DNA from: a virus
Taxonomy: Duplodnaviria; Caudoviricetes
IMG/VR virus record: IMGVR_UViG_3300027798_000045
Location: 1-61,933 of that record
Strand: one strand, 5' to 3'
Length of the DNA: 61,933 bases
Part shown: positions 39,562 through 61,933 of the stretch, piece after piece
Numbering within the stretch: position 1 is the first letter of the stretch
How the letters are laid out: every line of letters begins with the position of its first letter
Notes under the pieces: generated by a model
What the model saw: only the letters and a program-made list of their open reading frames with translations
The model's database searches: none
Told to the model about the DNA's origin: nothing
Translations under genes and position numbers: made by a program

Positions 39562-39876
39562 TTAACCGTTGAACTCCACCGTTCCACTCGCAATCGAAAG
39601 CTCTCCGTACCACCGACCGTCTCGCGCCTGCGCGGCCTTGGGGTACACGCGACCGGCGACCGTCACCCTACGGCCCGCGGTAAGCTCTCCGAGGCTCCGA
39701 CGAATCGTGCTTCCGAACAGCGATATGGACACCCTCTGAGCACGGTCGCTTCCGGGAGGGTGCGGATCGAGGAAAATGTTGAACGCCACGAACGACGGCT
39801 TGTTCGCGTCAGGAGGCTCAACAACCACGGCATCGTGCTCGATTGTACCGGTGGTGATTCCGTGGACAGAAGTCAT
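39562..39876 (-). CDS. OB-fold/SSB-like protein
   Basis: ISLFG...LTAGRRVTVAGRV resembles the SSB core; ATG 39876 coupled to the terL stop. Confidence 0.45.
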   Translation of the reverse strand: MTSVHGITTGTIEHDAVVVEPPDANKPSFVAFNIFLDPHPPGSDRAQRVSISLFGSTIRRSLGELTAGRRVTVAGRVYPKAAQARDGRWYGELSIASGTVEFNG

Positions 39877-41681: not shown

Positions 41682-41723
41682 CTTGCGGAACGCTCGCAGT
41701 TCGGGCCTGATTGCTCAAGAGCG

Positions 41724-43532: not shown

Positions 43533-43535
43533 GCC

Positions 43536-44510: not shown

Positions 44511-44513
44511 ACC

Positions 44514-46249: not shown

Positions 46250-46260
46250 CCGATACGATT

Positions 46261-47052
46261 ATGGCGCAACAGCAATCAATTCCAGGCGTGTTCGCCTACC
46301 TATCCGAAGGTGGCCCAAGGCTGGCCGAGTCGTTCACGTCCGGCATGAACGCGGGCAGTCGCGTGAAGGCTCAACAGTCCGAGGATGCTCGTGCGAAGGC
46401 AGACCAAGAGTTCCGCGCGGACAAGGAAAAGTACAACCGCGGCCGCGACACGACTGAAGACACGTACAAGCGTGGCCGTGACACGACCGAGGACCAGTTC
46501 AAACGCGACGCGATTGCGCGGCAGGACGAGATGAACAAGCAGGGTCTCATGCAGCGTTACGGGCAGGACCTCAAGTACGCCGCGGATGGGTCGGTGGATT
46601 TGCAGTCGTCGGAGAATGCCAGAAACCAACGCGCACTTGACGCGCAGGCTGCGGAGGCGTACGGCCAACAGAGTGGGCTTGGCGTCGAGGGGCCGTTCCC
46701 GCAGAACGTGATGGAGAATCCAGCGTATCCGGTCGGCGCAGCCAAGGGGATGGCAGAGAAGGTCAGGTTGGATAACGCATCAAAGATTGCAGAGGACAGA
46801 AACAACGAGCGTTTTTTAGACGCACTAATGCGTGGAAGTGGAGGGTATGGAGCTGAAAAAACTCCTCCTGAAATCACCGAACTAAACGGTGTTCCTGGAG
46901 TCAGCAGCAACGGTCGATTTACGCCGCTGACGGGAGACTCCCTGCGCGGCTACCGTCAGGCGCACCGGCCGAAGACCAACGCTGCACCGACCGCACCGAC
47001 CATCCGCGTCACCCGTGGACCGAACGGCGAAATCACCATCACCCGCCCGTAG
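46261..47052 (+). CDS. Internal virion/ejection protein
   Basis: Position in the module; tandem RGRDTTED repeat. Confidence 0.5.
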   Translation: MAQQQSIPGVFAYLSEGGPRLAESFTSGMNAGSRVKAQQSEDARAKADQEFRADKEKYNRGRDTTEDTYKRGRDTTEDQFKRDAIARQDEMNKQGLMQRYGQDLKYAADGSVDLQSSENARNQRALDAQAAEAYGQQSGLGVEGPFPQNVMENPAYPVGAAKGMAEKVRLDNASKIAEDRNNERFLDALMRGSGGYGAEKTPPEITELNGVPGVSSNGRFTPLTGDSLRGYRQAHRPKTNAAPTAPTIRVTRGPNGEITITRP

Positions 47053-47064
47053 CCCTCAAACACC

Positions 47065-50000
47065 ATGCCGAAACTTGTCGATTTCGAGGGAGTCGGAACC
47101 GTCGAGGTTCCGGATGATTTCCGTGACTCTGAGCTGACCGACCTCTACGGCCAGCTCTCCCAAGGTCGCCACTCCTCCGCGGCGAATGCGTTCATGCGGG
47201 CCGGAGGTGAGATGCTCGGTGGTGCCCTGTCCGGCGCGGCCAGAGTCATCCAAGCGTTCCCGCCTCCGACGCACAACCCGTACACCGGCGCTCCCATCCC
47301 GCGCGGGCCGGCAGTTCCGCTCGAAGAGGAGCCCATCTACAAGTTCGGGCAGGACCTGTCTGCCGGCGCTCGCGAAGCCTACCCCGTCAACCCGCTTCAC
47401 GCCGACAACCTCGAAACCGCCGTCGCGTCCGGGGCGGGTTCCGTGGTCGGGCTTCTGCCGTCTGCGCTTGCCGGCCCGCTGGCACCGGTGGCATCCGGCC
47501 TTACCTACGGCCTCTCCTCCGGAGAACAGGGCGCACAAGAGGCGTCGCAGTCCATCGACAACCAGATTGCCCAAGCTCTCGCGAAGGGCGACGAGGAGAC
47601 GGCGCAGCGGCTCACGCAAGCGAAGCCCGGCATCGTGAACAAAGCATTCGCGGGGTACGGCCTCGCGGGCGCTCTGTCCGAGGGCGCGCTCGGTGTGGCT
47701 GGAAAGCTCCCGATGCTCGCGAAGATGGGTGCGAAGCGCGGCGTCGTGAACAGCGCGCTGCGTGGGGCTGGAACGGAGGCGCTGCAAGAGGGCGGAGAGC
47801 AGGCCATTCAGAACATCACGTCGAAAGCGCTCTACGACCCGAACCGTTCGATAACCGAAGGCGTCACCATGAACGCCGGCGCGGGAGGCATCGTTGGCGG
47901 ACTGTTCGGCGGCGGCGCGGCATCCCTCGGGGCGCGTCAGCGCAAGGCCCGTCTCGACGCCATCCGGGCGGACCGAGCTGGTCGCGTGCTGAACCCCATG
48001 AGCCCAGAGGACGCAGCTCTGGCCCCGCTGTCCGCGAGCGCCGTGAAGTCCACCGCGGCGGAGGCGGAGGATTTCCTGAGCAAGCAGCTCACGGCGGAGG
48101 ACCTCGGGCTGGATACGGGTGCCGCACCGGTGAACCCAGACGCGGCCTACCAGCCTCCGGTCGCGACAGGCCCGGTCGCCACGGTTGCGACGCCGGAGGA
48201 GATTGCACAGGCGAAAGCCGATGCTGAGGCGCAAGCGGCTCCAGGACCGGCAGCCACCGTCACAGCCGGCACACCAACGGTCACTCCGACTCCCGAACCT
48301 CCCGAGGTTATCGCCGCGCAGCTCGCGCTCACAGCCAGCCCGGATTCGTCCAAGGCGGTCACGCTGGTCACGCCCGGCGAGGACGTGCCACCCGTTCCAG
48401 AGGGCCTGCAAGCCGCGGAGACGCAGCACGGGACCGCGATTTTCAACCCGCAGAAAACGACGGAGCAGCAGGTCGAGGAGGCCGCGGCGGGCGACATCTT
48501 CGACCCCGCGTTGCTCGGGATGGGCGCGGCCGTGCCCGAGTCCGAGGTGGCCGTAACGACCACCGGCCCGGATGGAACCCGGAACGTGCTCTCGGAGCTG
48601 GTGACGGAAGAAACCGTCCAGCAGGCCATGCAGGCGCAGCAAGCGGCTGTTCCGGGCGGGACCACGGAAGTCGTGCCTGCGGGCCAAGTGTTGCAGGAGA
48701 GGGGGCGGGGAGCAGGCTCTGATATTTTGGGCATCATTTCTGACGCTCGCGCTACGCAGGCACGCTTTCTGAAAGAAAAAGGAACAACGATTGAGGAAGC
48801 ACGAAAACTGCCAAAGACACAGCAGGCAAAACTGCAATCCGATTACGAAGCGTGGCTAAAGACGGAAGGCGGATTCACTATTGCGCCGCAAGCAGGCGAC
48901 ACTACGGGATGGAAAAGAACGCAAGACTGGCGCAAGGCCGTTGAACAAGTTACAGACATTGAGGATAAACTGGACTGGCTTCGGGCTGTTGCAAACAACA
49001 GAGGTTCTAAAGCGACTGCGCTGGATTTGTCGGACGCACTAGACAAAGTGGAATCATTGCGCCGCGAATGGCCGGAGCATAGCCGCATTGGGAACGCTCT
49101 ATGGGACATCGCTCAAAACCCAGCGGCATCAGCAGAAACGAAAGCGCGGGCAATGGCGGCTCGTGAAGATTTGCTTTCTCAAGGGGGAAAGTTCCCCGAC
49201 CTCGCGACCACCCCCACCGCCGAGACAGGGGCGAAGGGGAAGATAATTGGTGAGCGTGTTATTCCAAAAGATTGGACAGTTTTGACCGAACAGGAAAATC
49301 CGCCACTCGACAGAGACTTGGCTGACTACTCGAAATGGAGACGGGACATTGCAGCCAGAGTTCTTCCTGAAGGAACTCACATTGAACGGGAGTCGTTGCA
49401 GATGGAAATTTCAAATGCAATTTCCGAAGAAACTGCCAAAAAGAATCCAGACGGGAAACCAAAGTATGACCAGTGGCAGACGCATATTGTCGGACAGAGA
49501 ATCGCCGGAGAGTTGATTACGGGCAAACGCGCTGACATTCTCAGAAAAGCCAAAGACCGCGCCTTGCGGGATGAATACTCTCAATGGGACATGGGCATGG
49601 AATGGCTGGATGACAAGCCAGCCCCGCTATCTGTTGAAGCATACAAGAAACACAGCAATGGAAAACCGTTGCCGGATGGCTTCGTAAAAGAAGGCGACCG
49701 CTACGTTTTCAAACCAAAGCCCGCCGCCGAGGCAGGGGCGAAGGGGACAAGTCTTGCTGAACTCCAATCCAAGCGTGATGCAACCGAGGCACAGCGAAAA
49801 GCCGAGGATGCCAGGCCGAGAAAGCAAGGATTGCGAAGCGCCAAGGCAATAGATTTACAAAAGCAGGTCGAAGAACTCGACGCGCAAATCGCACCACTGA
49901 AAGACGCAGAGCAGGCGCGCTTCAAGGCAGAAGCCACAACCCAAGAATCACAGGCGAGATTGGAAAAAGAGCGTATCGACAAAACGCCGTTGTCTGGGGA

Positions 50001-53000
50001 CGAAAAGACGGAACTTGAAAGCCTGCGATTCTCACTGGAATACCGAGGCAATCTACCAGCGGACAGGGGTGCTCGGTTGCGAGAACTTGAGATTCGAGAA
50101 AAGATCGCGCCCGCCCCCGCCGCCGAGACAGTGGCGAAGGGGAAGCCGGTGGAAACCGGAGTGGTTGATACGATTGCTGGGCGCATGGGCTTGTCCGAGT
50201 TCGAGAATAAAGGTTACGCGCCAGAACAAGTAACTCGCCAGAACTGGATTGATCTTCAACGCGCCGAACGGCGACGCCTTGGACAACAGGAAGGTGGAGA
50301 TAATCGCAACGCGCCTTGGGCAGAATACGAAAACTTCCACGAAGACGCGGTAAAGCGAGCACTTGCGAAAGGTGAAGAGGTTGATTCTCAAGTCTTGGCC
50401 GACTACCCCAACCTCGCCCCCACCACCCAGCCCGCCCCCAAGCCGGTGGAGCAGATGACGGCGGAGGAGCAGGCCCAAGTCAGCGACGACGTGACATGGA
50501 GGACGGGGGCCGGCGACATGGCGCGTGCGACAGTTCAGCGCATTTCAAAATTACCCTACGACGCAGAGCCGATGGCGGATGTGGACTGGTTCGGAGTTAA
50601 GCGCGTTCCAGTGTCGCAGCTTAGGATTGTGAAAAAGTCTTCCCGGCGCGTGTTCGGGGAACAATCGGCAGCAAAATCCGCAGCAGCTCAGACCCCTCAA
50701 ACCGTTGCGGCAGACGCTCCAAAAGCGGTAAGAGGAAAAGTCGAGGTAAAGGTTCGCAACCCATACGGATTAGCTCCAGAAAACGAAAAGATTCAGACAG
50801 TCACAGGAAAGATAATCACGCTTGATTCCGCATCCGGCCATGAGTTTGTAATTTACCCAACTGGGAAATACTGGAGAGTAGTTGAGAAAACTACCGGAAG
50901 TTCGTTTGGAAACGAAACCAAGACAACTCAAAAAGATGCAATAGAATCCGCAGAATTTGCGTTAAGGTCGGTAAAGCCGGGGCTGTTCAACCAAGTGGTA
51001 AAAGATGCTGAAAAGCTGAATCCAGACCTCAAGGCCACACCCTCACCCGCCGCCACTGCCCCGCAGCCCGCCGCGGTCCCGACCGAAGGCGTCGGTTCCA
51101 TCTACACCGGCCAGCTCAAGGGCGAACCGGCATGGGTGGTTCAGCAGGGGGAAAAGAAGGGTGTCGGCGACACAATCTGGCGCTCGCGATCGGAGGCCGA
51201 GAAGGAATCTGCCGGAACAATAAAGCGCATCGCTCGGCGCGCGGAGATTCTGAAAGAGGAGGAGGCTGCGAAGGCAAAGGCTGCGGCAGACCTTGCCGAA
51301 CAAAGCAAGCTCGACGGCTTCGAGGAAGGCATGACGCCGGTGCAGCTCGGCCGCGCTAGGAAGGTGCTGTCTGAGACCCGCACAATCTGGAACGGAAAAG
51401 AGGACACGCGCAGGAACCACATCAAGCGCCTCGTGAACGAGGGGCGCACCATTGACGTTGGGCCGAACGGCAAGCGTAGGCTCATCACTCCCGACGGGTC
51501 GTTCTTCGGCGAGGACCAGACCACGAAGCTCGGGATGGACTACGCCGCGCATCTGATCGAGAACCGGAACGAAGAGGCTCAGGTCGCGGTCGAGCAGCCC
51601 GCCCCGGCACTCCCCTCCGAACCTGCCCGCGTCCAACTCCGTTCCGGCCCGCAAACCTACACCATCGAGGAGCAACTGCCCGCGCATAAGGGAGACCAAC
51701 CCGGCGAGGTGTACTTCCGGGTCAAGAACGAGAAGACGGGCGAGGTGCAGACCGTCGAGTCAGGGGATTTGAAGCCGGTCAAGGGGAAGGCCGGCGCGCA
51801 GGCTCAGGCCGACCCCGTCGAAGCCATCCTGACCCGCGCGATTGACGCGACCAACCCGCAGGGCAAGACGTTCGACTTCGTCTCCGGCGTTTCCCACGCG
51901 GTCGCGCACACCGCCCTGAAAATCGCTCGCGCGGTGTACATCTCGACGCGGGACATGGCCGCTGCCGTGCGGGCCGCCGTCGCCCACATGCGCGACAACG
52001 CGACGGAGGGGTTCAACGAGGCCAAGGCGGAGGCGAAAGTAAGGGAGGCGCTGGGGGAGGGCCGTTCTGATTCGAGTATTTGGGAAATTCCAAACCAAGA
52101 AATCACCAGCGCAGATACTTCAATAAACGAACGGAAAACTCCGGCAACTTTCTCTAAGGTTTCGTTTGAGCCTGGAACTAAAAATGCAGACATAGGAGGT
52201 GGCAGGTTTGATAATGCTACCGAGTTGCTATCTAAGATTGGTGTTGAGAACGTAATCTTTGACCCGTTCAACCGTTCGCGGGCAGAAAATGAGGTGGCCG
52301 TTGGGAAAATTTCAAACGGGCAGTCCGATACAGCCACGGTGAACAATGTGCTGAACGTCATCAGTGACCCGGAAAACCGAGACAGGGTGATAGCGCAAGC
52401 GGCGGACGCCATCAAGGAAGACGGGACCGCCTACTTCCTGATCTACGAAGGCGACAAGACCGGGACCGGCAGGGTCACAAAGTCCGCCAACGGAGTGCCT
52501 GGAAGCTGGCAGGAAAACAGAAGCGCAGCATCGTATGTAAATGAAATCAGTGACCATTTTTCAGAAGTCAGCCGCTCTGGGAATCTGATTGCAGCAAGGG
52601 GGCCAATCAAGGAGACGGCAAAGGTTCAGAAGGCGCTTGGTAACACGAAGGCATCCAAGCGCAATAGCCTTCGCGTCCGACTATCCAGGGAGGCGCTCAC
52701 GGACCTCGCACTATCTCAGGCGAAGTGGAGGGACTGGTACAAGGAGCACCAGGACACACTCGACGCATTCTTCGGAAGCGACGCTGGCCTGTTCCAGAAA
52801 ATCCTAGCCATCACCTCGCAGGCGGCTTCGGTGAAGGCAAACGTCGGGCTCGCATTGAAGGCGTTCGCGCAGTTCAAGCAGGGCCTTGATTTCGACGGCA
52901 AGACGCGCGGCGAGGAGTCGTCCGGGTATCTTCCGGCAGTCATCGGGAACCTGAACGCGCTTCGGGCCGAGACGCAGATTCAGGGCCGGAAGATTGGCGC

Positions 53001-56000
53001 GTACACGTCCGCGAACGAGGGCAAGACCGATTCCGTTGTCGTTGACCGGCACATCGCCAGGATGCTGTTCGGGGTCGATACCCCGTCCGCCGCGCAGTAC
53101 GCGAAGGCGTCCAAGGTTCTGACGGAAATCGCCAACGAGCTTGGATGGGAACCTCGTCAGGTTCAGGCAGCACTTTGGGCCGCATCAATCGTAAAATCTG
53201 GAAAGGAACCGCAATCTTATGGACAATATCTCAGGACGTTACACTCAAGAGGAACCCTCAAAGAGCGAATTGGACACGTTGTTGACCGAAGCTCAGAAGT
53301 CCATGGAAATGGCGGACTCGGGGTCGCTGATTCTGGAGGAGTTCAAGAGGCGGATGGAGGCGGAAAGCAGCCCGAGGCCGACGCGGTAGAGGGGTTTTTC
53401 AACAGGGCCATCGAGGTCACGGACCCGAGGGGGAAAGCCTTCGACTTCGTCTCGGGTGTTTCCTACGCGGTGGCAAACGCGGCACTCAAAATCGCGCGGG
53501 CCGTGTACATCCGAACTCGCGATATGGCTTCCGCTGTTCGCGCGGCGGTGGAGCACATACGGGAGAACTCCGAAATCGGATTCGATGAGGCGGCAGCCGA
53601 ATCCAAGATCCGTGAGACGCTATCCAGCGAGCCCGCCATCCAGCCCCCCGCCGCCGCACCCGGAGCCCGCACGCAAGAATCCCGCGGGCAGTTCACGGGG
53701 CTCATCACGCGCGACGGGGCCGCACAGTGGTCCGAGGCTGCGGCCGGCTGGATCAAGCAGTTCAACGGCGACCTGAACGCGGCAACGGTGGCGGCAATCG
53801 GCGGCGAACTTCCGTCCGACGTGCGGCAGTTCGTTTTTGGGCAGCTCCTGGAGCTGACGAATCAGGCCATCGCGACGACGAAGAACCCCGTCGAACGGAA
53901 CCAGCTCCTGAACCTGCAAGCCCGGCAGGCGGACGCGATGAAGGACTCCGGCGCGCTCGGCGGCAAGACCCTCGCGGCCCGCTTCCTCGCGATGAAAGCC
54001 ATCGAGCACATCATGCCGGTGTTGCTCTACCGCGGCCTCGTCCGGAAGGCGCAGCTCCAGGCCATCCCGTTCACGAGTGTCACGTCGGATGCGGTCCGGT
54101 CGTGGCTCACGCAAGCCGGCCGACAGGCTGTCGCGGAGACACGCGAGGCGATGACCAAGGCCAACGCAGTCGTGGCCCGCGTACTGAAACAGCAAGTCTC
54201 CGATTACGGCCAGACATGGCGCGACATCGTCACAGCCTCCACGGAAGCACAGGGAAACCATCGCGCGGAGATCTTCAAGCGCATCGCCGCCCACCCGGCG
54301 CTCCAGGGGCTCGACCAAGCCTCGCAAATCGAGCTGACGAACCTTCTGTCGGACGCTTGGGAGCGCGAGCGGATGAAAATCTTCCGGGCTGAGTTCCGGA
54401 AAATGGTCCCGCTCCCGAAGAAAACCAAGGAGGTCGATGCGAAGAAGCTGTTCGACGCGATTCCTGACCTCGTCAAGCAGGCGAACCTCGGCCTCCTCGA
54501 CGACGAGCAGTTCCGTGACGCGCTCGCCAAGCGGTACGGCGTGGCGTCCGTGAACGATGCGACCGCTCGCCGGCTGAACGAGATGGCGCAGCAAGCGCAG
54601 AAGGCTCCGTCGGGGGTGATGAGAAGCCGCATCCTGTCGCAGATGGTGGACCTGATTCAAGTCGCTGGCGGAATCTCGAAGGCGCACGTCCTGCGCGACT
54701 ACTGGTACGCCGCGGTGCTATCCAGCCCGCGCACGCAGGTCGATAACGGGATGGCTCTCCTGAACGGAGCGTTGATGACGGCGCTTGCGTCCGCGCGTGA
54801 CCCGCAGGCAGCTCCGTTCGTGTGGCGCGCGTTCACGTCTGGTCTCGCGGAGGCGGGCCGTGATTTCGTTCCCATCCTCCAAGGCGAGCGGTGGCGCATG
54901 TCGAACATCGACATCGACCGGCCCGCGTCCGTGCTGGACGCGCTCCAGAAAAGCCCGAACTACGCCGCGAAGGCTCTAGGCTCGTTTGCCTACGTCGGCC
55001 GTCTTATTGCCGCCCTCGACCATCTGAACACGCTGGCGACCCGTGAGGCGATGCTGGCGTGGGCAATCCACCGGTCCACGGATGGCGACGCCCGCGAGAT
55101 GATGCGCCCCGGACCACAGGACATCGCCGCGGCCCGAGAGCGCGCTGTTCAGGAGGGCACGCCGGCCGCGCTGGTTCAGAAACGCACCCGTGAAATTCTG
55201 GAGGAGCGCATCTCCCCGGAGCTGCTCCTCTCTGCGACGACCATCGGGCAGGAGGCGGCCTACCAGAGCGAACCGTACGGGTTCCTCGGGTACTTCTACC
55301 GGGCCATCAAGGGCCTCGACAAACTGCCCTACGTCGGAGGCGTTTCGCGCATCCTGTCCGGCACCGCGTTCGCCCGGTACGCGGTCAACGCATCGAACGA
55401 CATGCTGAACTACGCAGCCCCGATTGCGCTGTTCAGGTGGTACGTTTCCGCGACCGAGAGGCAGGCAACCTCGAAGTTGAACTTCACCCCGGAGCAGCGG
55501 GACCTGATTTTGATGAAGGCCGCGCTCGGAACCGTGGCAGCAACGGCCGCGGCGGCGGCGTTCCTTGGCGGCGGAGACGACGACAAGAAGAAGCGGGCTA
55601 TCGACATCCAAGGGTCGTTCCGGTCGCTCGAAGGACCGAAGCGAAACCAGCTCCTGGCCGAGGGAAACATCCCCTACTCCATCCGCATCGGGAACACGTA
55701 CGTATCCTACCGGCAGCTTCCGGTGGCCGCTATTCTCGGGACCATCGGTGAGATGCGTGACCGGCAGAAGTACCAGCCGGATCAGTGGAAGGAAGAGTCT
55801 GTCGCGGCAAACATCGGCAACGGTGCGATTGCCGGCATGTTCCTCGTCCGAGACTCGGCTGCAATCAGCTCGTTCATGGACTTCCTCGGCGTCGCAAACG
55901 CCTACAAGTACGACGTGAAGGGCATCTCCGAGAAGTCCATCCCGAGGTACGTGTCGAAGATGCTCGGGTCGCTGGTGCCGAACGCCGCGAAAGACGTCGA

Positions 56001-56448
56001 AGCCTGGGTTGACCCGTCGCTGTACCGCGGCAACTCAGCCGGTGAGTATTTCCTCCAGCAGCTTCCGCTTGCGCGCCAACTTGCAGGTGAAGGCCCGCTT
56101 CTGAATCTCTTCGGCGAGCCGGTTCAGGCCGACAAGTACCCGTGGTCTCGCTGGGTGAGCGGCAGGGAAGTTTCTCCGGAGTGGGAGGCGGCCGGCAACC
56201 TGGCGGCCCGCGGCCTGTTCTTGCCCCAAGTCGCCGGGTTCTCGGTCACGAATGACGACGGAACCCGGCGCAAGGCCACTCCGCGCGAGCTGTACGCCTA
56301 CCAGCGCGAGGTCGGCGCGGGCTACAAGGAGTTCATCCGCGAGAACGCAGCGGAACTGCAAACGATGGACGCGAAGGAAGCGGCGGATTTCATCAAGCGA
56401 GAGACATCTGCAATTCGCCGCGGCGTGCGGTTCGACATCCAGCCTTGA
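47065..56448 (+). CDS. Giant polyvalent ejection protein (3127 aa) with MTase and HhH-glycosylase-like domains
   Basis: Ejection-type N-terminus; NADIGGG...DPFNR...NNVLNVI (SAM MTase); WY...LAITSQ...VVVDRH...QVQAALW; helical C-terminal domain. Confidence 0.8.
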   Translation: MPKLVDFEGVGTVEVPDDFRDSELTDLYGQLSQGRHSSAANAFMRAGGEMLGGALSGAARVIQAFPPPTHNPYTGAPIPRGPAVPLEEEPIYKFGQDLSAGAREAYPVNPLHADNLETAVASGAGSVVGLLPSALAGPLAPVASGLTYGLSSGEQGAQEASQSIDNQIAQALAKGDEETAQRLTQAKPGIVNKAFAGYGLAGALSEGALGVAGKLPMLAKMGAKRGVVNSALRGAGTEALQEGGEQAIQNITSKALYDPNRSITEGVTMNAGAGGIVGGLFGGGAASLGARQRKARLDAIRADRAGRVLNPMSPEDAALAPLSASAVKSTAAEAEDFLSKQLTAEDLGLDTGAAPVNPDAAYQPPVATGPVATVATPEEIAQAKADAEAQAAPGPAATVTAGTPTVTPTPEPPEVIAAQLALTASPDSSKAVTLVTPGEDVPPVPEGLQAAETQHGTAIFNPQKTTEQQVEEAAAGDIFDPALLGMGAAVPESEVAVTTTGPDGTRNVLSELVTEETVQQAMQAQQAAVPGGTTEVVPAGQVLQERGRGAGSDILGIISDARATQARFLKEKGTTIEEARKLPKTQQAKLQSDYEAWLKTEGGFTIAPQAGDTTGWKRTQDWRKAVEQVTDIEDKLDWLRAVANNRGSKATALDLSDALDKVESLRREWPEHSRIGNALWDIAQNPAASAETKARAMAAREDLLSQGGKFPDLATTPTAETGAKGKIIGERVIPKDWTVLTEQENPPLDRDLADYSKWRRDIAARVLPEGTHIERESLQMEISNAISEETAKKNPDGKPKYDQWQTHIVGQRIAGELITGKRADILRKAKDRALRDEYSQWDMGMEWLDDKPAPLSVEAYKKHSNGKPLPDGFVKEGDRYVFKPKPAAEAGAKGTSLAELQSKRDATEAQRKAEDARPRKQGLRSAKAIDLQKQVEELDAQIAPLKDAEQARFKAEATTQESQARLEKERIDKTPLSGDEKTELESLRFSLEYRGNLPADRGARLRELEIREKIAPAPAAETVAKGKPVETGVVDTIAGRMGLSEFENKGYAPEQVTRQNWIDLQRAERRRLGQQEGGDNRNAPWAEYENFHEDAVKRALAKGEEVDSQVLADYPNLAPTTQPAPKPVEQMTAEEQAQVSDDVTWRTGAGDMARATVQRISKLPYDAEPMADVDWFGVKRVPVSQLRIVKKSSRRVFGEQSAAKSAAAQTPQTVAADAPKAVRGKVEVKVRNPYGLAPENEKIQTVTGKIITLDSASGHEFVIYPTGKYWRVVEKTTGSSFGNETKTTQKDAIESAEFALRSVKPGLFNQVVKDAEKLNPDLKATPSPAATAPQPAAVPTEGVGSIYTGQLKGEPAWVVQQGEKKGVGDTIWRSRSEAEKESAGTIKRIARRAEILKEEEAAKAKAAADLAEQSKLDGFEEGMTPVQLGRARKVLSETRTIWNGKEDTRRNHIKRLVNEGRTIDVGPNGKRRLITPDGSFFGEDQTTKLGMDYAAHLIENRNEEAQVAVEQPAPALPSEPARVQLRSGPQTYTIEEQLPAHKGDQPGEVYFRVKNEKTGEVQTVESGDLKPVKGKAGAQAQADPVEAILTRAIDATNPQGKTFDFVSGVSHAVAHTALKIARAVYISTRDMAAAVRAAVAHMRDNATEGFNEAKAEAKVREALGEGRSDSSIWEIPNQEITSADTSINERKTPATFSKVSFEPGTKNADIGGGRFDNATELLSKIGVENVIFDPFNRSRAENEVAVGKISNGQSDTATVNNVLNVISDPENRDRVIAQAADAIKEDGTAYFLIYEGDKTGTGRVTKSANGVPGSWQENRSAASYVNEISDHFSEVSRSGNLIAARGPIKETAKVQKALGNTKASKRNSLRVRLSREALTDLALSQAKWRDWYKEHQDTLDAFFGSDAGLFQKILAITSQAASVKANVGLALKAFAQFKQGLDFDGKTRGEESSGYLPAVIGNLNALRAETQIQGRKIGAYTSANEGKTDSVVVDRHIARMLFGVDTPSAAQYAKASKVLTEIANELGWEPRQVQAALWAASIVKSGKEPQSYGQYLRTLHSRGTLKERIGHVVDRSSEVHGNGGLGVADSGGVQEADGGGKQPEADAVEGFFNRAIEVTDPRGKAFDFVSGVSYAVANAALKIARAVYIRTRDMASAVRAAVEHIRENSEIGFDEAAAESKIRETLSSEPAIQPPAAAPGARTQESRGQFTGLITRDGAAQWSEAAAGWIKQFNGDLNAATVAAIGGELPSDVRQFVFGQLLELTNQAIATTKNPVERNQLLNLQARQADAMKDSGALGGKTLAARFLAMKAIEHIMPVLLYRGLVRKAQLQAIPFTSVTSDAVRSWLTQAGRQAVAETREAMTKANAVVARVLKQQVSDYGQTWRDIVTASTEAQGNHRAEIFKRIAAHPALQGLDQASQIELTNLLSDAWERERMKIFRAEFRKMVPLPKKTKEVDAKKLFDAIPDLVKQANLGLLDDEQFRDALAKRYGVASVNDATARRLNEMAQQAQKAPSGVMRSRILSQMVDLIQVAGGISKAHVLRDYWYAAVLSSPRTQVDNGMALLNGALMTALASARDPQAAPFVWRAFTSGLAEAGRDFVPILQGERWRMSNIDIDRPASVLDALQKSPNYAAKALGSFAYVGRLIAALDHLNTLATREAMLAWAIHRSTDGDAREMMRPGPQDIAAARERAVQEGTPAALVQKRTREILEERISPELLLSATTIGQEAAYQSEPYGFLGYFYRAIKGLDKLPYVGGVSRILSGTAFARYAVNASNDMLNYAAPIALFRWYVSATERQATSKLNFTPEQRDLILMKAALGTVAATAAAAAFLGGGDDDKKKRAIDIQGSFRSLEGPKRNQLLAEGNIPYSIRIGNTYVSYRQLPVAAILGTIGEMRDRQKYQPDQWKEESVAANIGNGAIAGMFLVRDSAAISSFMDFLGVANAYKYDVKGISEKSIPRYVSKMLGSLVPNAAKDVEAWVDPSLYRGNSAGEYFLQQLPLARQLAGEGPLLNLFGEPVQADKYPWSRWVSGREVSPEWEAAGNLAARGLFLPQVAGFSVTNDDGTRRKATPRELYAYQREVGAGYKEFIRENAAELQTMDAKEAADFIKRETSAIRRGVRFDIQP

Positions 56449-56626
56449 TGGCTTCACGCCAAGCCTCCGCGACATGCGTAGCGGTCGGAGTATTCGAGCC
56501 GGCCAGCGAATTGAGACGACACTCCATCGTGTAGCATCCGTCGTTCGTCAGCAGGCTCCAGTCCGCGGTCGCGGCAAGCAGGCGGTCCTCGTCGGAGCCT
56601 TCCGGGATGTGGGTCACGGGTATCAC
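56393..56626 (-). CDS. Hypothetical protein
   Basis: GTG coupled to the exonuclease stop; converges on the giant gene. Confidence 0.35.
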   Translation of the reverse strand: MIPVTHIPEGSDEDRLLAATADWSLLTNDGCYTMECRLNSLAGSNTPTATHVAEAWREAIKAGCRTARRGELQMSLA

Positions 56627-57423
56627 CTGACCTCCCTCGTCCACGCCGCCACATCGACGTACTGGATTCCGCCGCCGTAGGACGCCGGCCACACGCCGGA
56701 CGCCTTGTGCCCCGCGTACCGGTCGAGCCACGCCCTCGCCTGCTCGCGCGCCGCGGCCCGCTGCTCGTCGCGCAGCATGTAAACCCCGACCGCGTGCGGC
56801 TTCTCGTTCCCAACCACGATGAACACGAACTGCCGAGCCTCATCGGTCTCATCGCGCCACAGGTCGGTGTACCACGCATCCTGGATGTCGTAGCGCCACG
56901 ACGCGACGGCCTTCGCGAACCCGCGAGGTGACGGGTCCTCGGCCGTCTTGAGGTCCACGATGACCGGCTTACCGTTGACCTCGACCTCCTCGGACTGCCA
57001 GTCGAGCAGGCCCTTCAAGGCGAGCCCGGTCTTCGGGTCGGTGTGGAATACGGCGGTCGATGGCGCTCCACGGCGGAGCAGGGCGGCGGCGTCCGGGCAG
57101 TTCTTCACGGCCTCGGCCATCGCGTGCGCCTTGGACATCTGCTCCTCGGTCGCGACCGTGATGCCGGCGTCAAGCTGCGCGTCACGCCACTCGCGCGCTT
57201 CCTTGGTGCGGTACGAGTCGAACGGCGACTGCGTGTACGTGAACTTCGTCCCGAAGACCAACGACTCCGTGAGCAGGCCCAAGACCTGCGACGACGACGG
57301 CTTGGATTTCGTGGATTCCGCGAGCTGAACCGCGGCCGGGCAGTCCGAGAATGCCTTGAGCGTGGACTGGTTGACGCCTTCGGCGCGGCGATAGACGTGG
57401 TCGGGGCAGAGTTCGGTTATCAC
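56623..57423 (-). CDS. PD-(D/E)XK exonuclease (RecE/ExoVIII-like, DUF3799 type)
   Basis: VNQSTLK, LKGLLDW, IVDLKT, YDIQDAWY, FVFIVV. Confidence 0.85.
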   Translation of the reverse strand: MITELCPDHVYRRAEGVNQSTLKAFSDCPAAVQLAESTKSKPSSSQVLGLLTESLVFGTKFTYTQSPFDSYRTKEAREWRDAQLDAGITVATEEQMSKAHAMAEAVKNCPDAAALLRRGAPSTAVFHTDPKTGLALKGLLDWQSEEVEVNGKPVIVDLKTAEDPSPRGFAKAVASWRYDIQDAWYTDLWRDETDEARQFVFIVVGNEKPHAVGVYMLRDEQRAAAREQARAWLDRYAGHKASGVWPASYGGGIQYVDVAAWTREVR

Positions 57424-58412
57424 ACGCCCTCCTTCTTCGTGAGCTGCCGCAGGATAGCGCGCTCGCTGCGCTTCACGAACGCGACGAGTTCGGGTGTGAC
57501 GGGCGAGAGGCTCCGGTCTGCGTTCGCCTCGATGATGGCCTCGTGGCCAGGCCACTCGTTATCGACGGCTTTCGACAGGAACACCGTCATCGGGATCTCG
57601 TTCTCGCCAAGCCAACGACCCAGCCACACCTGCGAGTTTGCGTCGGGTTCGGATGCGGCGGGGGGGAACTGAAACACGGGGGCGGGTTCCAGGGTGGGCT
57701 CCACCACGACCTCCGCAGCCGGAGCCACCGTCACAACCGGCTGCACCACGACCGCGTCCACCGGGACCTCCGTCGCTGCGGCGGGCCGGCGAGTGCGGCG
57801 CGGTGCCTCGACCTCCTTGATGACCGGTTGAACCGTGACTTCGTGGACCGGCATGTCCTCCGCCTCGTCGCGCGTGACCATGCCGAGCGAAACCTCAGGG
57901 GCGTACGCACGGGTCCAGAACGCCGCGGCCCGGTACTGGAGCATCTGCTCAGGCATGGTCTTCCACTTCGAGCCGGCCTTCGTGTGCCAGCCTTCGGCCT
58001 TCGCCATTGCAATCGAGACGCACGACCCGACCAGCTCCTCGCCGGTCTTGAGATCCTTGGCGACCGCGCGGCAGCCCCACTCGTCGGTGCCCTCCGTGCC
58101 GCTGAACCGGAACCGCAGCGGGGAGAACTTCCCGGACTGGTTCACGGTGGCGATGAGGAACGGCGAGCCGAGCGACGGACGCCCGTGGATGACGTGCATG
58201 TTCTGCATCACGGCCAGCACGGACGCCCCGAGGCGGCCCGACAGCTCCATCGCGATGAGCACGTTGCCCATGTTTGCGGAACCGCGGTAGATTTCCGGGA
58301 CGAGGGACGAGCTGCACAGGGCGTTGCCGATGCGCTGCGCGACGACGAACGATGCCTCCCCGGAGAACGGGGAGATGGGTTGGTTGCTGTGGTTTACGGT
58401 TGCGATTTCCAT
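57420..58412 (-). CDS. ssDNA-annealing recombinase (RecT-like)
   Basis: SSLVPEIYRG, VMQNMHVIHGRPS, MAKAEGW, KWKTMPEQMLQYRA; paired with the exonuclease. Confidence 0.8.
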   Translation of the reverse strand: MEIATVNHSNQPISPFSGEASFVVAQRIGNALCSSSLVPEIYRGSANMGNVLIAMELSGRLGASVLAVMQNMHVIHGRPSLGSPFLIATVNQSGKFSPLRFRFSGTEGTDEWGCRAVAKDLKTGEELVGSCVSIAMAKAEGWHTKAGSKWKTMPEQMLQYRAAAFWTRAYAPEVSLGMVTRDEAEDMPVHEVTVQPVIKEVEAPRRTRRPAAATEVPVDAVVVQPVVTVAPAAEVVVEPTLEPAPVFQFPPAASEPDANSQVWLGRWLGENEIPMTVFLSKAVDNEWPGHEAIIEANADRSLSPVTPELVAFVKRSERAILRQLTKKEGV

Positions 58413-58429
58413 ATTTTACGTGCGTTTGC

Positions 58430-58482
58430 TGTTAGCTGATGAGTGCGTTGGGTGGCGGACGTGTTAGCTGATGAGTGCGTTG
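58430..58482 (+). repeat. Two 21-bp direct repeats TGTTAGCTGATGAGTGCGTTG
   Basis: Exact copies at 58430-58450 and 58462-58482. Confidence 0.9.
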
Positions 58483-58670
58483 AGGTCTTCGATGCTGAAA
58501 CGGACCATGCCGTCGAGCGAACGCTTCGGGAGCTTCCCGTCGCGGACTAGGGTCTTGATGTAGCTTACGGAGCAGTTGAGGTGCGCCGCGGCCGTCTCGT
58601 ACGTCCGCCAAGGGCCGGTCGTTTCGAGCACCGCTTTCCGGACAGTTCGCTGCATGGCTTGGTCAGTCAC
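58464..58670 (-). CDS. Excisionase-like HTH protein
   Basis: WRTYETAAAHLNCSVSYIKTLVRDGKLP...VRFSIEDL (HTH_17/Xis pattern). Confidence 0.8.
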   Translation of the reverse strand: MTDQAMQRTVRKAVLETTGPWRTYETAAAHLNCSVSYIKTLVRDGKLPKRSLDGMVRFSIEDLNALIS

Positions 58671-58693
58671 GGCGCGACGATGTCGGAAAAGAC

Positions 58694-59221
58694 TTGCGTA
58701 GTCAAGCGGTTGATTGTAGAAATCTTCGCGTGACGACCGTAACGACGCATCAAATGGTTCCGGCCGATGCCCACAGCTTGTCCGTATTGATGCGCGGCAT
58801 CGCTGGCGAGCGGGAGTGGTTCATGGATACCGGGCGCGCGAACGCTGGCGTGTCCATTGGAGACATCGTGATTGCCGAGCAGCGCGGCGGAATCGGAGCG
58901 GTGGCTATCGACCCGAATCCCATCGCCTTCGCCTGCATCTGGCCCGAGCGTCATCAGTACGAAGGTTTCGATCACGTCGGCCGGCTGTCGATGGGCGTCG
59001 CGAAGCAGTATCGCCGGCAGGGAATCGGCCGGAAGCTCCTCGAAGCCGTGCTGGCCGCGACGAAATTCGAGCGCGTCGAGCTGGAGGTCTTCGAGCACAA
59101 CGAGGCTGCCGTCGCGCTGTACCGCCAGTTCGGATTCGAGACCGAAGGCGTGAAGCGCAACGCGAGATTTTTGGACGGAAAATACATGAACCTCGTACTT
59201 ATGGCGCGTCTCCGCGCATGA
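58694..59221 (+). CDS. GNAT acetyltransferase (start uncertain)
   Basis: MGVAKQYRRQGIGRKLL, LEVFEHNEAAVALYRQFGF. Confidence 0.85.
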   Translation: MRSQAVDCRNLRVTTVTTHQMVPADAHSLSVLMRGIAGEREWFMDTGRANAGVSIGDIVIAEQRGGIGAVAIDPNPIAFACIWPERHQYEGFDHVGRLSMGVAKQYRRQGIGRKLLEAVLAATKFERVELEVFEHNEAAVALYRQFGFETEGVKRNARFLDGKYMNLVLMARLRA

Positions 59222-60204
59222 AACCCACCCGCTGGTCCTCCCTTGCCGACGCCTACCTGAGCGCCGGCTGCCCTGGACGTAACGGGATGCCCAAATCCCC
59301 GACGGCCGCTTCCATGGACCGCATCCGCATTGAGCGACTGCGGCCCACCTTCGGGCGCAGCAAGCTGGCGAACATCGGCCTCCTATCCGCCATCACGTAC
59401 GGTCGCAGCCAGACCGAACGCCCGCGGGCCGCTGAGCAGGAACTCGACACGCTGTCGGCCACGCTGTCGTTCGCTGCGCTGCACGGCTGGATTCCAGTGA
59501 ACCCAATCGTGCGCCGGCCGAAGCTCCAGAACGCCGCCGACGTGCGCCATTGCCGCGAGGTGATGCCGGTGGACGGCGACGAGCTGCACAGGCTAGCCTC
59601 GGAGATGTTCAGCGACGTAGCCAGCGAGGCCACCGGGTGGCAGATGCTGTTCGAGGCGCTGACGGGCTGTCGCACGTCGGAGATCCTGTCGTTTCGGATG
59701 GACGCCAAGTCGAAGCAGGAGCCGGGCTACATCGAGGGCCGGTTCCTGTACGTGCGGCGGTCCAAGGCGGGCCGGTTCCCGTTCGTGACGCTCCACCCCG
59801 CGCTCGTGACTGCGATCGAGTGGCATCGCAAGTGGCACGCCGCGACGTACGGTGACGCTTCGCCCTGGTGGTTTCCCGGCCGCGACCTGGCCCGCCCGCT
59901 GAACCGGGTGTCGCTGACGCACCGGCTGGCCGCGATTTGCAAGCGCCTTGGCCTCGGGCATCGTACCAGCCACGGGATGCGCGCGTTCTTCGTGACCGTG
60001 ATGCGGTCGCGAGGCACGTCGAACGAGCAGGTTGCGGCCATGATCGGCGACCGGACATCCTCGCTCATCGAGACGACCTACGGCGCGTTGCCCGAGGTCT
60101 GGTCGGGAGGCGAGCCGATGGATTGGATGCCGCGCGAGGGCGCTCCGGCTTGGAAGATTTTTGATGCACACAACGAACACGTAAACCAACCATGCAATTC
60201 CTAA
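59218..60204 (+). CDS. int: Tyrosine recombinase/integrase
   Basis: TGCRTSEI, HGMR, MIGD...TTY catalytic residues; ATG 59218 coupled to the GNAT stop. Confidence 0.88.
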   Translation: MKPTRWSSLADAYLSAGCPGRNGMPKSPTAASMDRIRIERLRPTFGRSKLANIGLLSAITYGRSQTERPRAAEQELDTLSATLSFAALHGWIPVNPIVRRPKLQNAADVRHCREVMPVDGDELHRLASEMFSDVASEATGWQMLFEALTGCRTSEILSFRMDAKSKQEPGYIEGRFLYVRRSKAGRFPFVTLHPALVTAIEWHRKWHAATYGDASPWWFPGRDLARPLNRVSLTHRLAAICKRLGLGHRTSHGMRAFFVTVMRSRGTSNEQVAAMIGDRTSSLIETTYGALPEVWSGGEPMDWMPREGAPAWKIFDAHNEHVNQPCNS

Positions 60205-60503
60205 ACATCGACGTAACACTCATCGACAAGACCGGCCTGATTCCCGGCAAGCCGAAGCCGGACGGACGGATTCCGAAGTACGTGGACCTCACGCTCCACG
60301 ATAACAAGGCGGGCCGCGACCAGTACGGCAACGACGGGTTCGTGACCCAGAGCTTGCCAAAGGAGCGCCGGCAGGCCGGAGAAAAGGGTCCGATTCTCGG
60401 GAACTGGAAGCACTACGAGCAGCGTGCGGCTGGAGCGCCGGTGCCGGCCCCGGTGAAGCCAGCCGCTCCGAAAACCCCAGAAGACGACGACATCCCGTTC
60501 TGA
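60192..60503 (+). CDS. Phage ssDNA-binding protein-like
   Basis: DQYGNDGFVTQ, GPILGN, acidic C-terminal DDDIPF tail. Confidence 0.65.
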   Translation: MQFLNIDVTLIDKTGLIPGKPKPDGRIPKYVDLTLHDNKAGRDQYGNDGFVTQSLPKERRQAGEKGPILGNWKHYEQRAAGAPVPAPVKPAAPKTPEDDDIPF

Positions 60504-60514
60504 ACCCCGAAATC

Positions 60515-60820
60515 ATGGACACATCCATCATCCCAAACACCCCCGGCGCGCAGCTTGCAACCCAAGGCGCAGGAACTCCGAAGACCATCACCCCCGAGGA
60601 GCGCGAGGCCCGCAAGCAGCGCATGGCGAAGGCCAGGGCTGCGCGGAAGCCGAAGTCGGAGGTCGCGGCACCTGTCGCGCCGGCTCCGGTCGCGCCGGTC
60701 GCACCCCGCGTCCACGTCGCGCAGTCCGTCACGCTGACGCCTCCGCCATCCACCCAGCGCGTCCACATCTCGATGGGCATCGCGATTCCGCCTCCGGTGC
60801 AGATTCTCAGGCCGAGGTGA
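60515..60820 (+). CDS. Basic Pro/Ala-rich hypothetical protein
   Basis: ATG start, followed by a terminator. Confidence 0.5.
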   Translation: MDTSIIPNTPGAQLATQGAGTPKTITPEEREARKQRMAKARAARKPKSEVAAPVAPAPVAPVAPRVHVAQSVTLTPPPSTQRVHISMGIAIPPPVQILRPR

Positions 60821-60836
60821 CGCACCCAGAAACAGG

Positions 60837-60873
60837 ACAGCCGCCTCAAGTACGAGGCGGCTGTTTTCGTTTC
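60837..60873. terminator. Intrinsic terminator between convergent units
   Basis: ACAGCCGCCTC-AAGTAC-GAGGCGGCTGT followed by TTTCGTTTC. Confidence 0.75.
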
Positions 60874-60888
60874 GGGGCCGGAGGTGGG

Positions 60889-61932
60889 TTACAAGTCGCT
60901 CGCCAGCGTCCTGAACGCAAGCTCTGCTGTGGCTGGCACTACGCCATTTCCGAGGAGTCGGAGTTCGTCGGTTCTATTGTCACAGGACACGCACAGCTTG
61001 GCATAGTCCAGCCCACGGGCAGTCCCATCAGGGTTTCTACCCAGCGAGGGTTGAGTTTCCCCTGCGTGTGCAGCTTCTTCACCTGATCCGCAATACCCAC
61101 TTGCGGATCTTTCGGCGTACGGTTGGTCAGTTTTACTCCTTCTGGCTTTGCTTCGATTAACTGCGAGGTTGGTGTTCTCCACGCTTTCGGTGTCGCGCCC
61201 ACTTGATTCTGGAGATAAATCTGCTGGCTGTGCGCTTGGTTCTTCTCCTCCGCTACGGATGGTGTTCTCCATTGCTTGACCTGTAACGTCAACGGCATCG
61301 TTGCCACGTCCCCCTTGGCTTGCCTCAAGGCCCATGTCTCCGGGTTCTCGTCTGTGACCTTGCCCGATCTTGGCGTCGCCCACGATTGCCGCTTCTCCTT
61401 CTCCACCATCTCTACTTGCTGATTGATGGTTTGAGATTGTAGCACCAGGCGACCATCCGGTTGTAGCCTGTACGCCCTCTCTCCGGGTTTCGCTGGTTGA
61501 CCGTCTTTCGTGAATAACGTCTCCACCCTGGCTCCAGCCTCGTTGGCTGATGGCGTTCTCCATTGAGATGACAACTCTGGGCGGTTCCCATGAGTGCTGG
61601 GGCTGGCTGGGGCGGGACGGCCATTGGCAATAGCTTGCTGCACGGCGATTGTCAAAGGCGTCCCCATTCCGTTCCCATTGCGATGCTTCTCTATGTTTCG
61701 AGCCTTCCTCGCCTCCCATGAGGCTAATGTTTCCCCATCGTTCACTACGGCTCCGCTTGGAGTGGGCCAAGATGAAGACCCGTTTGCGTTGATGAGGCGC
61801 GCCAATTTCAGCCGCGCTGAATATGCCCCACGTTGTTCTGTAACCCATTCTTCCCAAGTCTTCGATGACGTTGGACAACCCCAACGAGATATGTCCTTCG
61901 ACATTTTCAAAGAAACAGATACTTGGTCGCAT
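60889..61932 (-). CDS. C5 methyltransferase alpha polypeptide, copy 2 (5' part cut by window end)
   Basis: FFENVEG, PHQRKRVF, LLGNGVVP; near-identical to copy 1 outside the variable modules. Confidence 0.88.
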   Translation of the reverse strand: MRPSICFFENVEGHISLGLSNVIEDLGRMGYRTTWGIFSAAEIGAPHQRKRVFILAHSKRSRSERWGNISLMGGEEGSKHREASQWERNGDAFDNRRAASYCQWPSRPSQPQHSWEPPRVVISMENAISQRGWSQGGDVIHERRSTSETRREGVQATTGWSPGATISNHQSASRDGGEGEAAIVGDAKIGQGHRREPGDMGLEASQGGRGNDAVDVTGQAMENTIRSGGEEPSAQPADLSPESSGRDTESVENTNLAVNRSKARRSKTDQPYAERSASGYCGSGEEAAHAGETQPSLGRNPDGTARGLDYAKLCVSCDNRTDELRLLGNGVVPATAELAFRTLASDL

Positions 61933-61933
61933 T
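60939..61933 (-). CDS. C5 methyltransferase beta polypeptide, copy 2 (alternate frame, 5'-truncated)
   Basis: Five W-x-T-P modules and LNPRWVETLMGLPVGWT. Confidence 0.8.
   Translation of the reverse strand, partial: CDQVSVSLKMSKDISRWGCPTSSKTWEEWVTEQRGAYSARLKLARLINANGSSSWPTPSGAVVNDGETLASWEARKARNIEKHRNGNGMGTPLTIAVQQAIANGRPAPASPSTHGNRPELSSQWRTPSANEAGARVETLFTKDGQPAKPGERAYRLQPDGRLVLQSQTINQQVEMVEKEKRQSWATPRSGKVTDENPETWALRQAKGDVATMPLTLQVKQWRTPSVAEEKNQAHSQQIYLQNQVGATPKAWRTPTSQLIEAKPEGVKLTNRTPKDPQVGIADQVKKLHTQGKLNPRWVETLMGLPVGWTMPSCACPVTIEPTNSDSSEMA

Follow-up and report, generated by a model that had tools for sequence, protein, structure and literature searches.

C5 cytosine methyltransferases of Bacillus phages (M.SPRI, M.Phi3TI and M.H2I, in work reportedly by Wilke et al. 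in 1988 and others) are said to be multispecific, with tandem recognition domains between motifs VIII and IX of one polypeptide. The units of these enzymes reportedly differ between related phages, and their role is presumed to be self-protection of phage DNA. A second kind of enzyme, in which two reading frames of one gene are used, is M.EcoHK31I, for which the original work is said to be that of Lee, Kam & Shaw in 1995. According to the parts of two papers that are drawn on here, M.EcoHK31I, from E. coli HK31, is a heterodimeric C5 methylase: the DNA for its beta chain lies within the alpha gene but is read in a different frame, and both chains are required and have to associate; motifs I-VIII, motif X and the recognition domain are in alpha, and motif IX is in beta (PMC2836561, PMC3404938). 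M.AquI is described in the relevant part of one of these as a split C5 methylase with a short overlap (PMC3404938). Here we analyse a phage gene from the IMG/VR virus record IMGVR_UViG_3300027798_000045 (Duplodnaviria; Caudoviricetes), the whole of which (61,933 nucleotides, nt) is called the window below. The gene is found in the window in two versions on the minus strand, allele 1 and, at the contig end, allele 2. The enzyme that it encodes is a phage C5 cytosine methyltransferase, and the stretch at the contig end covers the 3′ two-thirds of the gene.

We propose, with a probability of roughly 0.6 for the explanation as a whole, that this is a two-frame, two-chain C5 methylase with cassette modules, and that its two alleles come from two phages that were merged in one record. 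Translation would begin at overlapping start codons and proceed through the gene in two co-extensive frames. The alpha chain would comprise a large catalytic domain (motifs I-VIII), a long disordered linker, a docking island (WPSRPGxPQHxWEPPR) and motif X, and the beta chain, in the +1 frame, would bring a row of W-x-T-P modules as its variable region, and then motif IX. Beta would dock on alpha via motif IX, motif X and the island, and a complete enzyme would thus be rebuilt, as in M.EcoHK31I. From one allele to the other, whole modules are replaced or inserted, always with length changes divisible by three and with no stops in either frame; each module may be a separate target-recognising unit, in which case several motifs would be methylated and the phage DNA protected from several restriction systems.

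In allele 1, the alpha open reading frame (ORF) contains motifs I-VIII, the disordered linker, the island and motif X, with the ATG at 11393 as its probable start (giving 454 amino acids, aa), and the beta ORF contains an N-terminal ‘shadow’ of the catalytic domain, then five W-x-T-P modules and motif IX. The alpha frame of allele 2 opens mid-gene at motif VI (ENV), followed by motif VIII (QRKR), passes through the linker and the WPSRPSQPQHSWEPPR island and closes with motif X (GNGVVP); in its beta frame, the tryptophan codons of the W-x-T-P modules start at 61769, 61562, 61382, 61271 and 61181, and motif IX, LNPRWVETLMGLPVGWT, follows. The Pfam family PF00145 matches allele 1 alpha with E 3.9e-32, but only at profile positions 4-194 of 324 (TIGR00675 gives E 1.3e-23, below its cut-off); it matches allele 2 alpha with E 3.7e-10 on aa 2-71, a match also found in a PF00145 scan of the genome. 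Allele 1 beta matches phrog_1008, ‘DNA methyltransferase’, with E 8.7e-21. The catalytic motifs I (FxGxG), IV (PCQ), VI (ENV) and VIII (QxRxR) stand together in one alpha chain and are invariant in 32 aligned chains. The order of a single-chain C5 enzyme is not what is found, in that the variable region and motif IX lie in the +1 frame and motif X comes in alpha after about 240 disordered residues.

The sequence-only reading made before this analysis had held that the gene is truly double-coding, and this is borne out: both frames are open beyond chance by permutation, and they are co-terminal in 60 of 66 loci. When synonymous codons were permuted so as to keep the beta protein, alpha was open in 0.0002 of 5000 trials (middle of the gene), and in the converse permutation, of the N-terminal part, the other frame was open in 0.0012 of trials; the third frame of allele 1 has 24 stops. 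The locus survey, which covered contigs from viruses, metagenomes and genomes, took in 112 related loci, and 66 of these are unique with both ORFs closed inside the locus (the remainder being 26 that failed the N-terminal regular expression, 11 duplicates, 8 that extend past the end of the locus and 1 that lacks an alpha start codon where it was expected). In 52 of the 66, alpha carries motifs I-VIII and X, beta carries IX and the two ends lie no more than 150 nt apart, and in all 66, which are assessable in this respect, the third frame has 7-30 stops. Start codons overlap in every one of the 49 unique start regions, either as ATGTG (‘ATGTGGAT’, with the alpha GTG at +2) or as ATGACATGG (‘ATGACATGGAT’, with the alpha ATG at +5). 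The layout is present in an isolate genome, that of Geminisphaera colitermitum TAV2 (L142; alpha 444 aa, beta 443 aa), and nesting is also seen in Phage C75C1, where a 30% identical beta is unannotated, and in Paenibacillus larvae phages and Escherichia phage K1ind1, where both ORFs are annotated as methyltransferases. In a further locus, L074 (1399-1917), nearly the whole gene is deleted, so that the N-terminus of beta continues directly and in frame into the motif X end, leaving a 173-codon open frame (stop to stop).

Could beta be a chance open frame without a product? No family in Pfam or NCBIfam matches it, which would agree with this idea; the best 120 of its 3147 relatives (database proteins at E ≤ 1e-5) have no Pfam family either, and are called ‘hypothetical protein’, twice ‘predicted transcriptional regulator’, or nothing at all, and its matches in a protein atlas are clusters without names, mostly viral. 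Against it stand the very number of those relatives, the permutation tests and the conservation across 66 loci, and also the beta-frame selection, the complex model and the Pfam span in locus L071 that are given below, so that a chance frame is scarcely credible.

The identity of the parts in beta is clearest from L071, a natural in-frame fusion in which PF00145 covers profile positions 1-294 of 324, across the W-x-T modules and LNPRWVETLMG; therefore the place of the variable region is taken by the W-x-T units, and the motif at the end is motif IX. The same in-frame fusion of catalytic part and W-x-T units is present in L072, from another metagenome. In L071, units of W-x-T-P / WPSP type (e.g. 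MEWYTPDVPNGG and WPSPRASDAEHGGPNQRG) also occur outside the enzyme, in ORFs flanking the methylase (1162-1473 and 2600-2867).

In the AlphaFold2 (AF2) model of alpha, residues 1-190 are predicted to be largely folded, with a predicted local distance difference test score (pLDDT) of 55-92 per 10-residue block, and residues 190-242 and 259-429 (pLDDT 32-41) to be disordered; the C-terminal helix at the motif X end, residues 430-452, has pLDDT 80-90. Alpha and beta are predicted to associate as in M.EcoHK31I, the complex model having an interface score (ipSAE) of 0.85 (runs 0.80, 0.85 and 0.86) versus 0.00 for the best of three controls. Of 80 solved complexes, 58 reach the ipSAE mark, as do 2 of 110 mismatched pairs, counts that are rough since our own alignments were used; the runs of the complex model have a contact agreement of at least 52% and a partner pLDDT of at least 54. 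In this model beta 394-426 contacts alpha 413-437, alpha 239-261 (the island) and motif I, motif X contacts beta 400-414, and the island is predicted to touch motif IX of beta. Such a split of large and small domain across two chains follows the domain structure of M.HhaI and M.HaeIII, as given in the part of PMC3404938 used here.

The two frames are not selected alike along the gene. In the N-terminal third, the nucleotide diversities for positions 1/2/3 of the alpha codons are 0.211/0.134/0.348, and amino-acid identity is 0.77 for alpha, 0.59 for beta and 0.55 for the third frame; on this pattern the selected protein is alpha, with beta as a shadow that is merely held open. The modules give the reverse pattern, indicative of purifying selection in the beta frame: substitutions at beta positions 1/2/3 number 79/103/211, and identity is 0.84 for beta, 0.75 for alpha and 0.71 for the third frame (from two module types only, represented by 4 and 5 unique DNAs). 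Alpha-frame selection is absent from the middle of alpha except at the 17-codon island, where alpha positions 1/2/3 have diversities of 0.158/0.128/0.409 and identity is 0.84 in alpha and 0.53 in beta. This island is flanked by modules on both sides, occurs once per gene in 49 locus rows and is nearly invariant. Since an alpha-selected island lies amid beta-selected modules, both frames are read through the middle, and two full-length chains are therefore favoured over one chain with two frameshifts.

In that one-chain alternative, a single polypeptide would be made via two programmed frameshifts (+1 after motif VIII and -1 after motif IX), and the rest of both frames would be untranslated shadow. 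The alpha-beta-alpha order of the conserved parts along the DNA is the canonical order, which would fit with this, as would natural variants in which one junction is in frame: L071 and L072 fuse motifs I-VIII to modules and motif IX, and in L042 beta continues into motif X. However, untranslated shadows would not remain stop-free for 1.3 kb in as many as 60 of the 66 loci; an alpha-selected island stands among the beta-selected modules, and the two frames begin at overlapping start codons; the chains of M.EcoHK31I, in the accounts cited above and to the extent drawn on here, are separate and both needed; and no slippery site was evident by eye at the two junctions, where no systematic scan was made. 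We thus consider frameshifting into one polypeptide improbable, and favour two chains from two co-extensive frames.

Comparing the two alleles upheld most of what the sequence-only reading had said of the modules. It had counted five W-x-T-P modules per beta ORF, and five are found in both alleles. The three modules that it gave as shared almost base for base (WRTPSANE, WATPRSGK and WRTPSxAEE) lie in the block 10229-10646 versus 61185-61602, with 9 differences in 418 nt (98% nucleotide identity), and the modules private to one allele were also as it stated: WPTATTRDWKG and WPTPTTAEAGK in allele 1, and WPTPSGAVVND and WRTPTSQLIEA in allele 2. The swaps do, as claimed, preserve both open frames, the length differences in variable stretches V1 and V2 (Table 1) being whole codons with no stops in either frame of either allele. 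The further claim, that divergence starts at the W-x-T codons, is right for only two of the four borders, the 5′ border of V1 lying directly after TGGCC and the 5′ border of V2 three nt before TGGAGAAC. Of the remaining borders, one lies at the WPSRPS..WEPPR island of the alpha frame and one at motif IX (GKLNP). The 126-letter V2 insertion of allele 2 is also present in high-depth contigs from sequencing runs X1, X3 and X5, to which we return below.

Across the family the modules are found in many arrangements. The module region alone has 1855 relatives, and among the best 120 of these 1855 there is no PF00145 fusion, longer and shorter length classes not having been searched. For the comparison of modules, 158 unique beta chains (from database matches, loci and the two alleles) were cut at W.T[PA], and clustering at 60% identity and 70% coverage sorted the 568 modules into 153 types, 79 of them singletons. 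A fixed order and content of modules across homologues had been named beforehand as what would speak against shuffling; instead, the 154 unit-bearing proteins have 146 architectures, in line with the combinatorial reuse that was foreseen. The types fall into position classes (first-only types, of the WPTAxxRDxKG kind; last-only types; and promiscuous interior types), and the commonest interior type has 23 different predecessors and 24 successors. No type occurs twice in the same protein (0 of 154, versus 21.2 expected, with a minimum of 10 in 2000 reshuffles). Close relatives of the window alleles, at least 86% identical in the N-terminal part, have 3 to 6 units in differing sets, while over the whole set one and the same catalytic chain is accompanied by anything from 0-1 to 8 units, and module types hold discrete lengths whatever their neighbours. 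The minimal form, L027, has a single WPT-type unit, which is written WPTI and is outside the W.T[PA] count. That the modules behave as cassettes, a mosaic reused in many combinations, is well supported by these comparisons of sequence.

What the cassettes do is a separate matter. The beta modules probably recognise DNA, and we hold multispecific methylation with an anti-restriction role at about even odds. It might be instead that the two-chain enzyme is real but that its modules are structural or DNA-affinity repeats, or spacers, with mosaicism as neutral recombination noise and one motif, or a relaxed motif, shared by all alleles. There is no match to a solved target-recognition domain, as such an account would have it, and the W-x-T-P cores are of low confidence in the model; moreover, only 8 of the 612 co-occurring type pairs are seen in both orders, which together with the first-only and last-only types suggests structural position effects. 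Tandem repeat duplication, however, would yield proteins with the same type twice, of which there are none; and the range of unit number beside one and the same catalytic chain, the discrete lengths of the types and the beta-frame purifying selection on the modules all argue in the same direction. We consider modules without a role in specificity unlikely, and specificity cassettes on a second chain remain our preferred reading.

The sequence-only reading had also spoken of ‘two MTase copies’ of one genome, and here it has to be corrected: an exact terminal repeat of 127 nt, a jump in guanine-plus-cytosine (GC) content and gaps in depth assign the alleles to two phages. The IMG/VR entry is the whole window, labelled linear, with a CheckV rating of 100% complete. 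A de Bruijn assembly path that re-enters a node yields an exact terminal repeat of this kind, and in the window the path re-enters its own node at the 127-nt repeat, giving a cycle (10929..61806) of 50,878 nt. GC is 45-54% over 1-11 kb versus about 62% beyond; the left-arm relatives are viral contigs of about 50% GC which match the window to ~11416, including the whole methylase, and then diverge. Depths were compared on Logan contigs from four freshwater runs (X1, X2, X3 and X5) placed on 8000-14500, contig depths being rough, and in three of the four (X2, X3 and X5) allele 2 and the GC-rich part are 4- to 30-fold deeper than allele 1 and the left arm. In their variant letters the deep contigs agree exactly with allele 2, and the loose end that they have before 10057 is window 60875-60904; the allele-2 contig of X3 holds both the 126 extra letters and the variant letters of that allele. 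A 445-aa protein from another contig (P0001) combines the allele-1 N-terminus (115/115) with allele 2 beta (330/330 aa). From the variant letters, the loose end and P0001 it follows that allele 2 runs on into 11056.., closing the 50,878-nt cycle. Because of the exact terminal repeat and the 4- to 30-fold depth differences, the record is a tadpole-shaped assembly of two phages, and thus a two-phage chimera. The abundant 62%-GC phage, represented by the cycle, would carry allele 2, and the rarer 50%-GC phage (left arm, 1..~11416) would carry allele 1, the assembler having fused these phages of the same waters at their shared 127-mer. The circle was not closed through other assemblies: a 39-mer specific to allele 2 had no match among contigs of viruses or metagenomes, no allele-2 contig came out of a protein scan of the metagenome contigs (best match 68%), and the integrase had no close relative among viral contigs. 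That the genome is faithful, with the two methylase genes as paralogues 50 kb apart in one phage, would agree with the single linear and complete virus of the IMG/VR and CheckV labels, and with the depths in run X1, which are similar on both sides; set against the depth gaps in the three other runs, the exact repeat of k-mer size and the jump in GC, it is very improbable.

Several points weigh against our two-chain, two-phage explanation. The module statistics rest on best matches to allele 1, and on regular-expression and cluster thresholds set by ourselves, and the locus pattern is broken in 6 of the 66 loci (L008, L022, L116, L061, L071 and L074). Modelled by itself, beta gives a poor structure (mean pLDDT 56.8, with the W-x-T-P cores below 50), and the complex model is confident only for modules 4-5 and motif IX; its docking pass may reflect the model's memory of how motifs IX and X pack in solved single-chain C5 methyltransferases. 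The beta profile had 0 matches to solved structures at E ≤ 10; in like manner nothing better than chance rows (E around 1) came up against solved structures for L027, whose beta is minimal, and Foldseek with the beta model, which is too poor for such use, gave no match at E ≤ 0.001. Since there is no solved-structure match and the beta model is poor, the modules are called target-recognising only by their position (motif VIII to motif IX) and their behaviour. As for the two phages, both genomes are at similar depth in run X1 (Logan depths being rough), and the left-arm relatives and the window alike have the gene order 945-aa gene / two-frame methylase / phrog_757-type methylase, a conserved order which leaves room for some real relatedness of the two phages around the methylase.

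Table 1. Features of the two-frame methylase alleles in the window, the terminal repeat and the contig depths by run.
Feature	Position in window	Strand	Details
Allele 2 alpha frame	60889..61932	minus	347 codons; 5′ part cut by contig end; from ORF list
Allele 2 beta frame (+1 relative to alpha)	60939..61931	minus	330 codons; ORF cut by contig end
Allele 1 alpha ORF	10029..11462	minus	477 codons from GTG
Allele 1 beta ORF	10091..11398	minus	435 aa; W-x-T-P at 10891, 10798, 10606, 10426, 10315
Overlapping start codons	11391..11398	minus	beta ATG 11398-11396, alpha ATG 11393-11391 (ATGACATGG)
Alpha-frame island WPSRPSQPQHSWEPPRVV	61570..61623 (allele 1: 10614-10667)	minus	near-invariant in 32 aligned alpha chains
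Motif IX, beta frame, LNPRWVETLMGLPVGWT	61005..61055 (allele 1: 10157-10207)	minus	
Motif X core GNGVVP, alpha frame	60934..60951 (allele 1: 10086-10103)	minus	
Variable stretch V1, allele 2	61582..61780	minus	199 nt; one module (WPTPSGAVVND)
Variable stretch V1, allele 1	10626-10902		277 nt; two modules; 78 nt longer than allele 2
Variable stretch V2, allele 2	61050..61184	minus	135 nt; extra module WRTPTSQLIEA...
Variable stretch V2, allele 1	10202-10228		27 nt; 108 nt shorter than allele 2
Terminal repeat	61807..61933		last 127 nt of record; exact copy of 10929-11055
Depths, run X3			left arm 82.9; allele-1 V1 49; allele-2 contig 1822.6; contig 10929-12092 (0 differences) 1838.6
Depths, run X2			left arm 427; allele-1 V1 421.6; allele-2 / GC-rich part 5835 and more
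Depths, run X5			left arm 27.2 and 24.7; allele-2 contig 128.4; GC-rich part 101-108
Depths, run X1			left arm 25.9-30.4; allele-1 V1 30.1; allele-2 / GC-rich part 35.6-51.5

Taken further, the system might be widespread, with ~1.3 kb of DNA encoding two full-length chains, and with beta as a natural library of one to eight cassettes, each of which would add one methylated motif and would also have to encode, in the other frame, a linker free of stops; unrelated phages (of 50% and 62% GC) would then trade the gene and its cassettes against host restriction. This wider proposal is tentative, and we would place its chances somewhat below even.

For annotation, the consequence is that gene callers retain either alpha or beta, not both, and that alpha chains are filed as complete methylases. 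Since alpha is without the variable region and motif IX, a specificity predicted from alpha alone would be wrong. If each module is a recognition unit, the family would offer a natural experiment in which to follow the building and exchange of specificity in C5 methylases, and it is also an extreme test case of two proteins which share one DNA sequence while still recombining. Naturally split C5 methylases serve as scaffolds for targeted methylation, according to the part of PMC2836561 drawn on here.

Many related viral contigs (L007-L074) start or stop inside or beside the methylase gene, which suggests that it regularly breaks metagenome assemblies; being nearly base-for-base common to unrelated phages and having a hypervariable middle, the gene causes assemblies to break or to be mis-joined there. 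In runs X1 and X5, contigs depart from the window at 10982 and 11506 into letters that are absent from it, and are further variants or flanks of the methylase gene in the same waters. The 50,878-nt cycle encodes an integrase, RecT, an exonuclease, a primase, a helicase and a terminase, and the arm of the other phage is 10.9 kb long. Upstream of the two-frame methylase, at a distance of 1.6 kb, is a second, unrelated DNA methyltransferase gene (window 13078-13764, minus strand; phrog_757, E 2.7e-60), and a 69-72% identical homologue of this phrog_757 type is on the same side in the left-arm relatives L007 and L076. Elsewhere in the window (47065-56448, plus strand) is an ORF of 3127 aa with an internal duplication, of two ~65-aa segments beginning GK(T/A)FDFVSGVS..., and with a 41-nt repeat in three copies, at 49213, 49720 and 50116.

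How, then, does this methylase stand beside the described systems? With M.EcoHK31I, as set out in the parts of the papers cited at the start, it shares a beta in another frame within the alpha gene and a division of motifs that puts I-VIII and X in alpha and IX in beta, a likeness of layout. Whereas M.EcoHK31I, in the same accounts, has its recognition domain in alpha and a short internal ORF for beta, here the modules are all in beta, and beta starts with alpha at overlapping start codons, runs the full length and carries 0-8 modules; the middle of alpha, in turn, is predicted to be a disordered linker with a docking island. Among 72,556 plasmids searched by tblastn with beta, a single weak match was obtained, to Paenibacillus.

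Like M.AquI and the gp91/gp90 pair of Mycobacterium phage Tucker, the enzyme is a two-chain C5 methyltransferase that is cut in or before the variable region. The Tucker genes are split with a 68-nt overlap, the second chain having two LPTP units and then motifs IX and X, and the relative L042 shares this layout. In M.AquI and Tucker the chains overlap at their ends and motif X is on the second chain, but here the overlap is total and motif X is on the catalytic chain. Many records of mycobacteriophages, Xanthomonas phages and Escherichia phages have two methyltransferase coding sequences (CDS) per match (as in Tucker, L152 1486-2482), and two-chain C5 methylases may be common in phages.

As in enzymes of the SPR/phi3T type, several tandem units lie between motifs VIII and IX and differ between related phages, yet here they are in a second chain and another frame, and multispecificity is for our enzyme only inferred. 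In a tblastn search with beta of 50,697 phage records at E ≤ 1e-5, no Bacillus phage was matched and there was no similarity to SPR/phi3T; the matches were 48 Paenibacillus records, Phage C75C1 and one labelled ‘Bacteriophage’.

The nearest relatives in annotation are nested pairs of CDS in GenBank, both called ‘DNA cytosine methyltransferase’, in Paenibacillus larvae phages (such as Bloom, gp56/57) and in Escherichia phage K1ind1 (gp32/33). These have the same +1 nesting of alpha and beta, and their inner ORF contains LNPxxxxWLMG as well as one or more WxTP units; unlike the present alleles, they have one to three units and their beta starts inside alpha. The Paenibacillus phage paper, in the part consulted, lists the genes without discussing their nesting (PMC6070908), and the part of the GeneTack paper that was available has no cluster of such an overlapping-frame methylase (PMC3711429); our literature search found no paper describing a full-overlap two-frame methylase with a modular beta. 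The system was earlier put forward as under-described, and it is indeed under-annotated, although its double-coding layout has precedents in M.EcoHK31I and in the annotated nested pairs. Where it goes beyond the known systems is in joining a two-frame heterodimer to tandem units, with total overlap of the frames, a shared start, and all of the units, in variable number, in beta.

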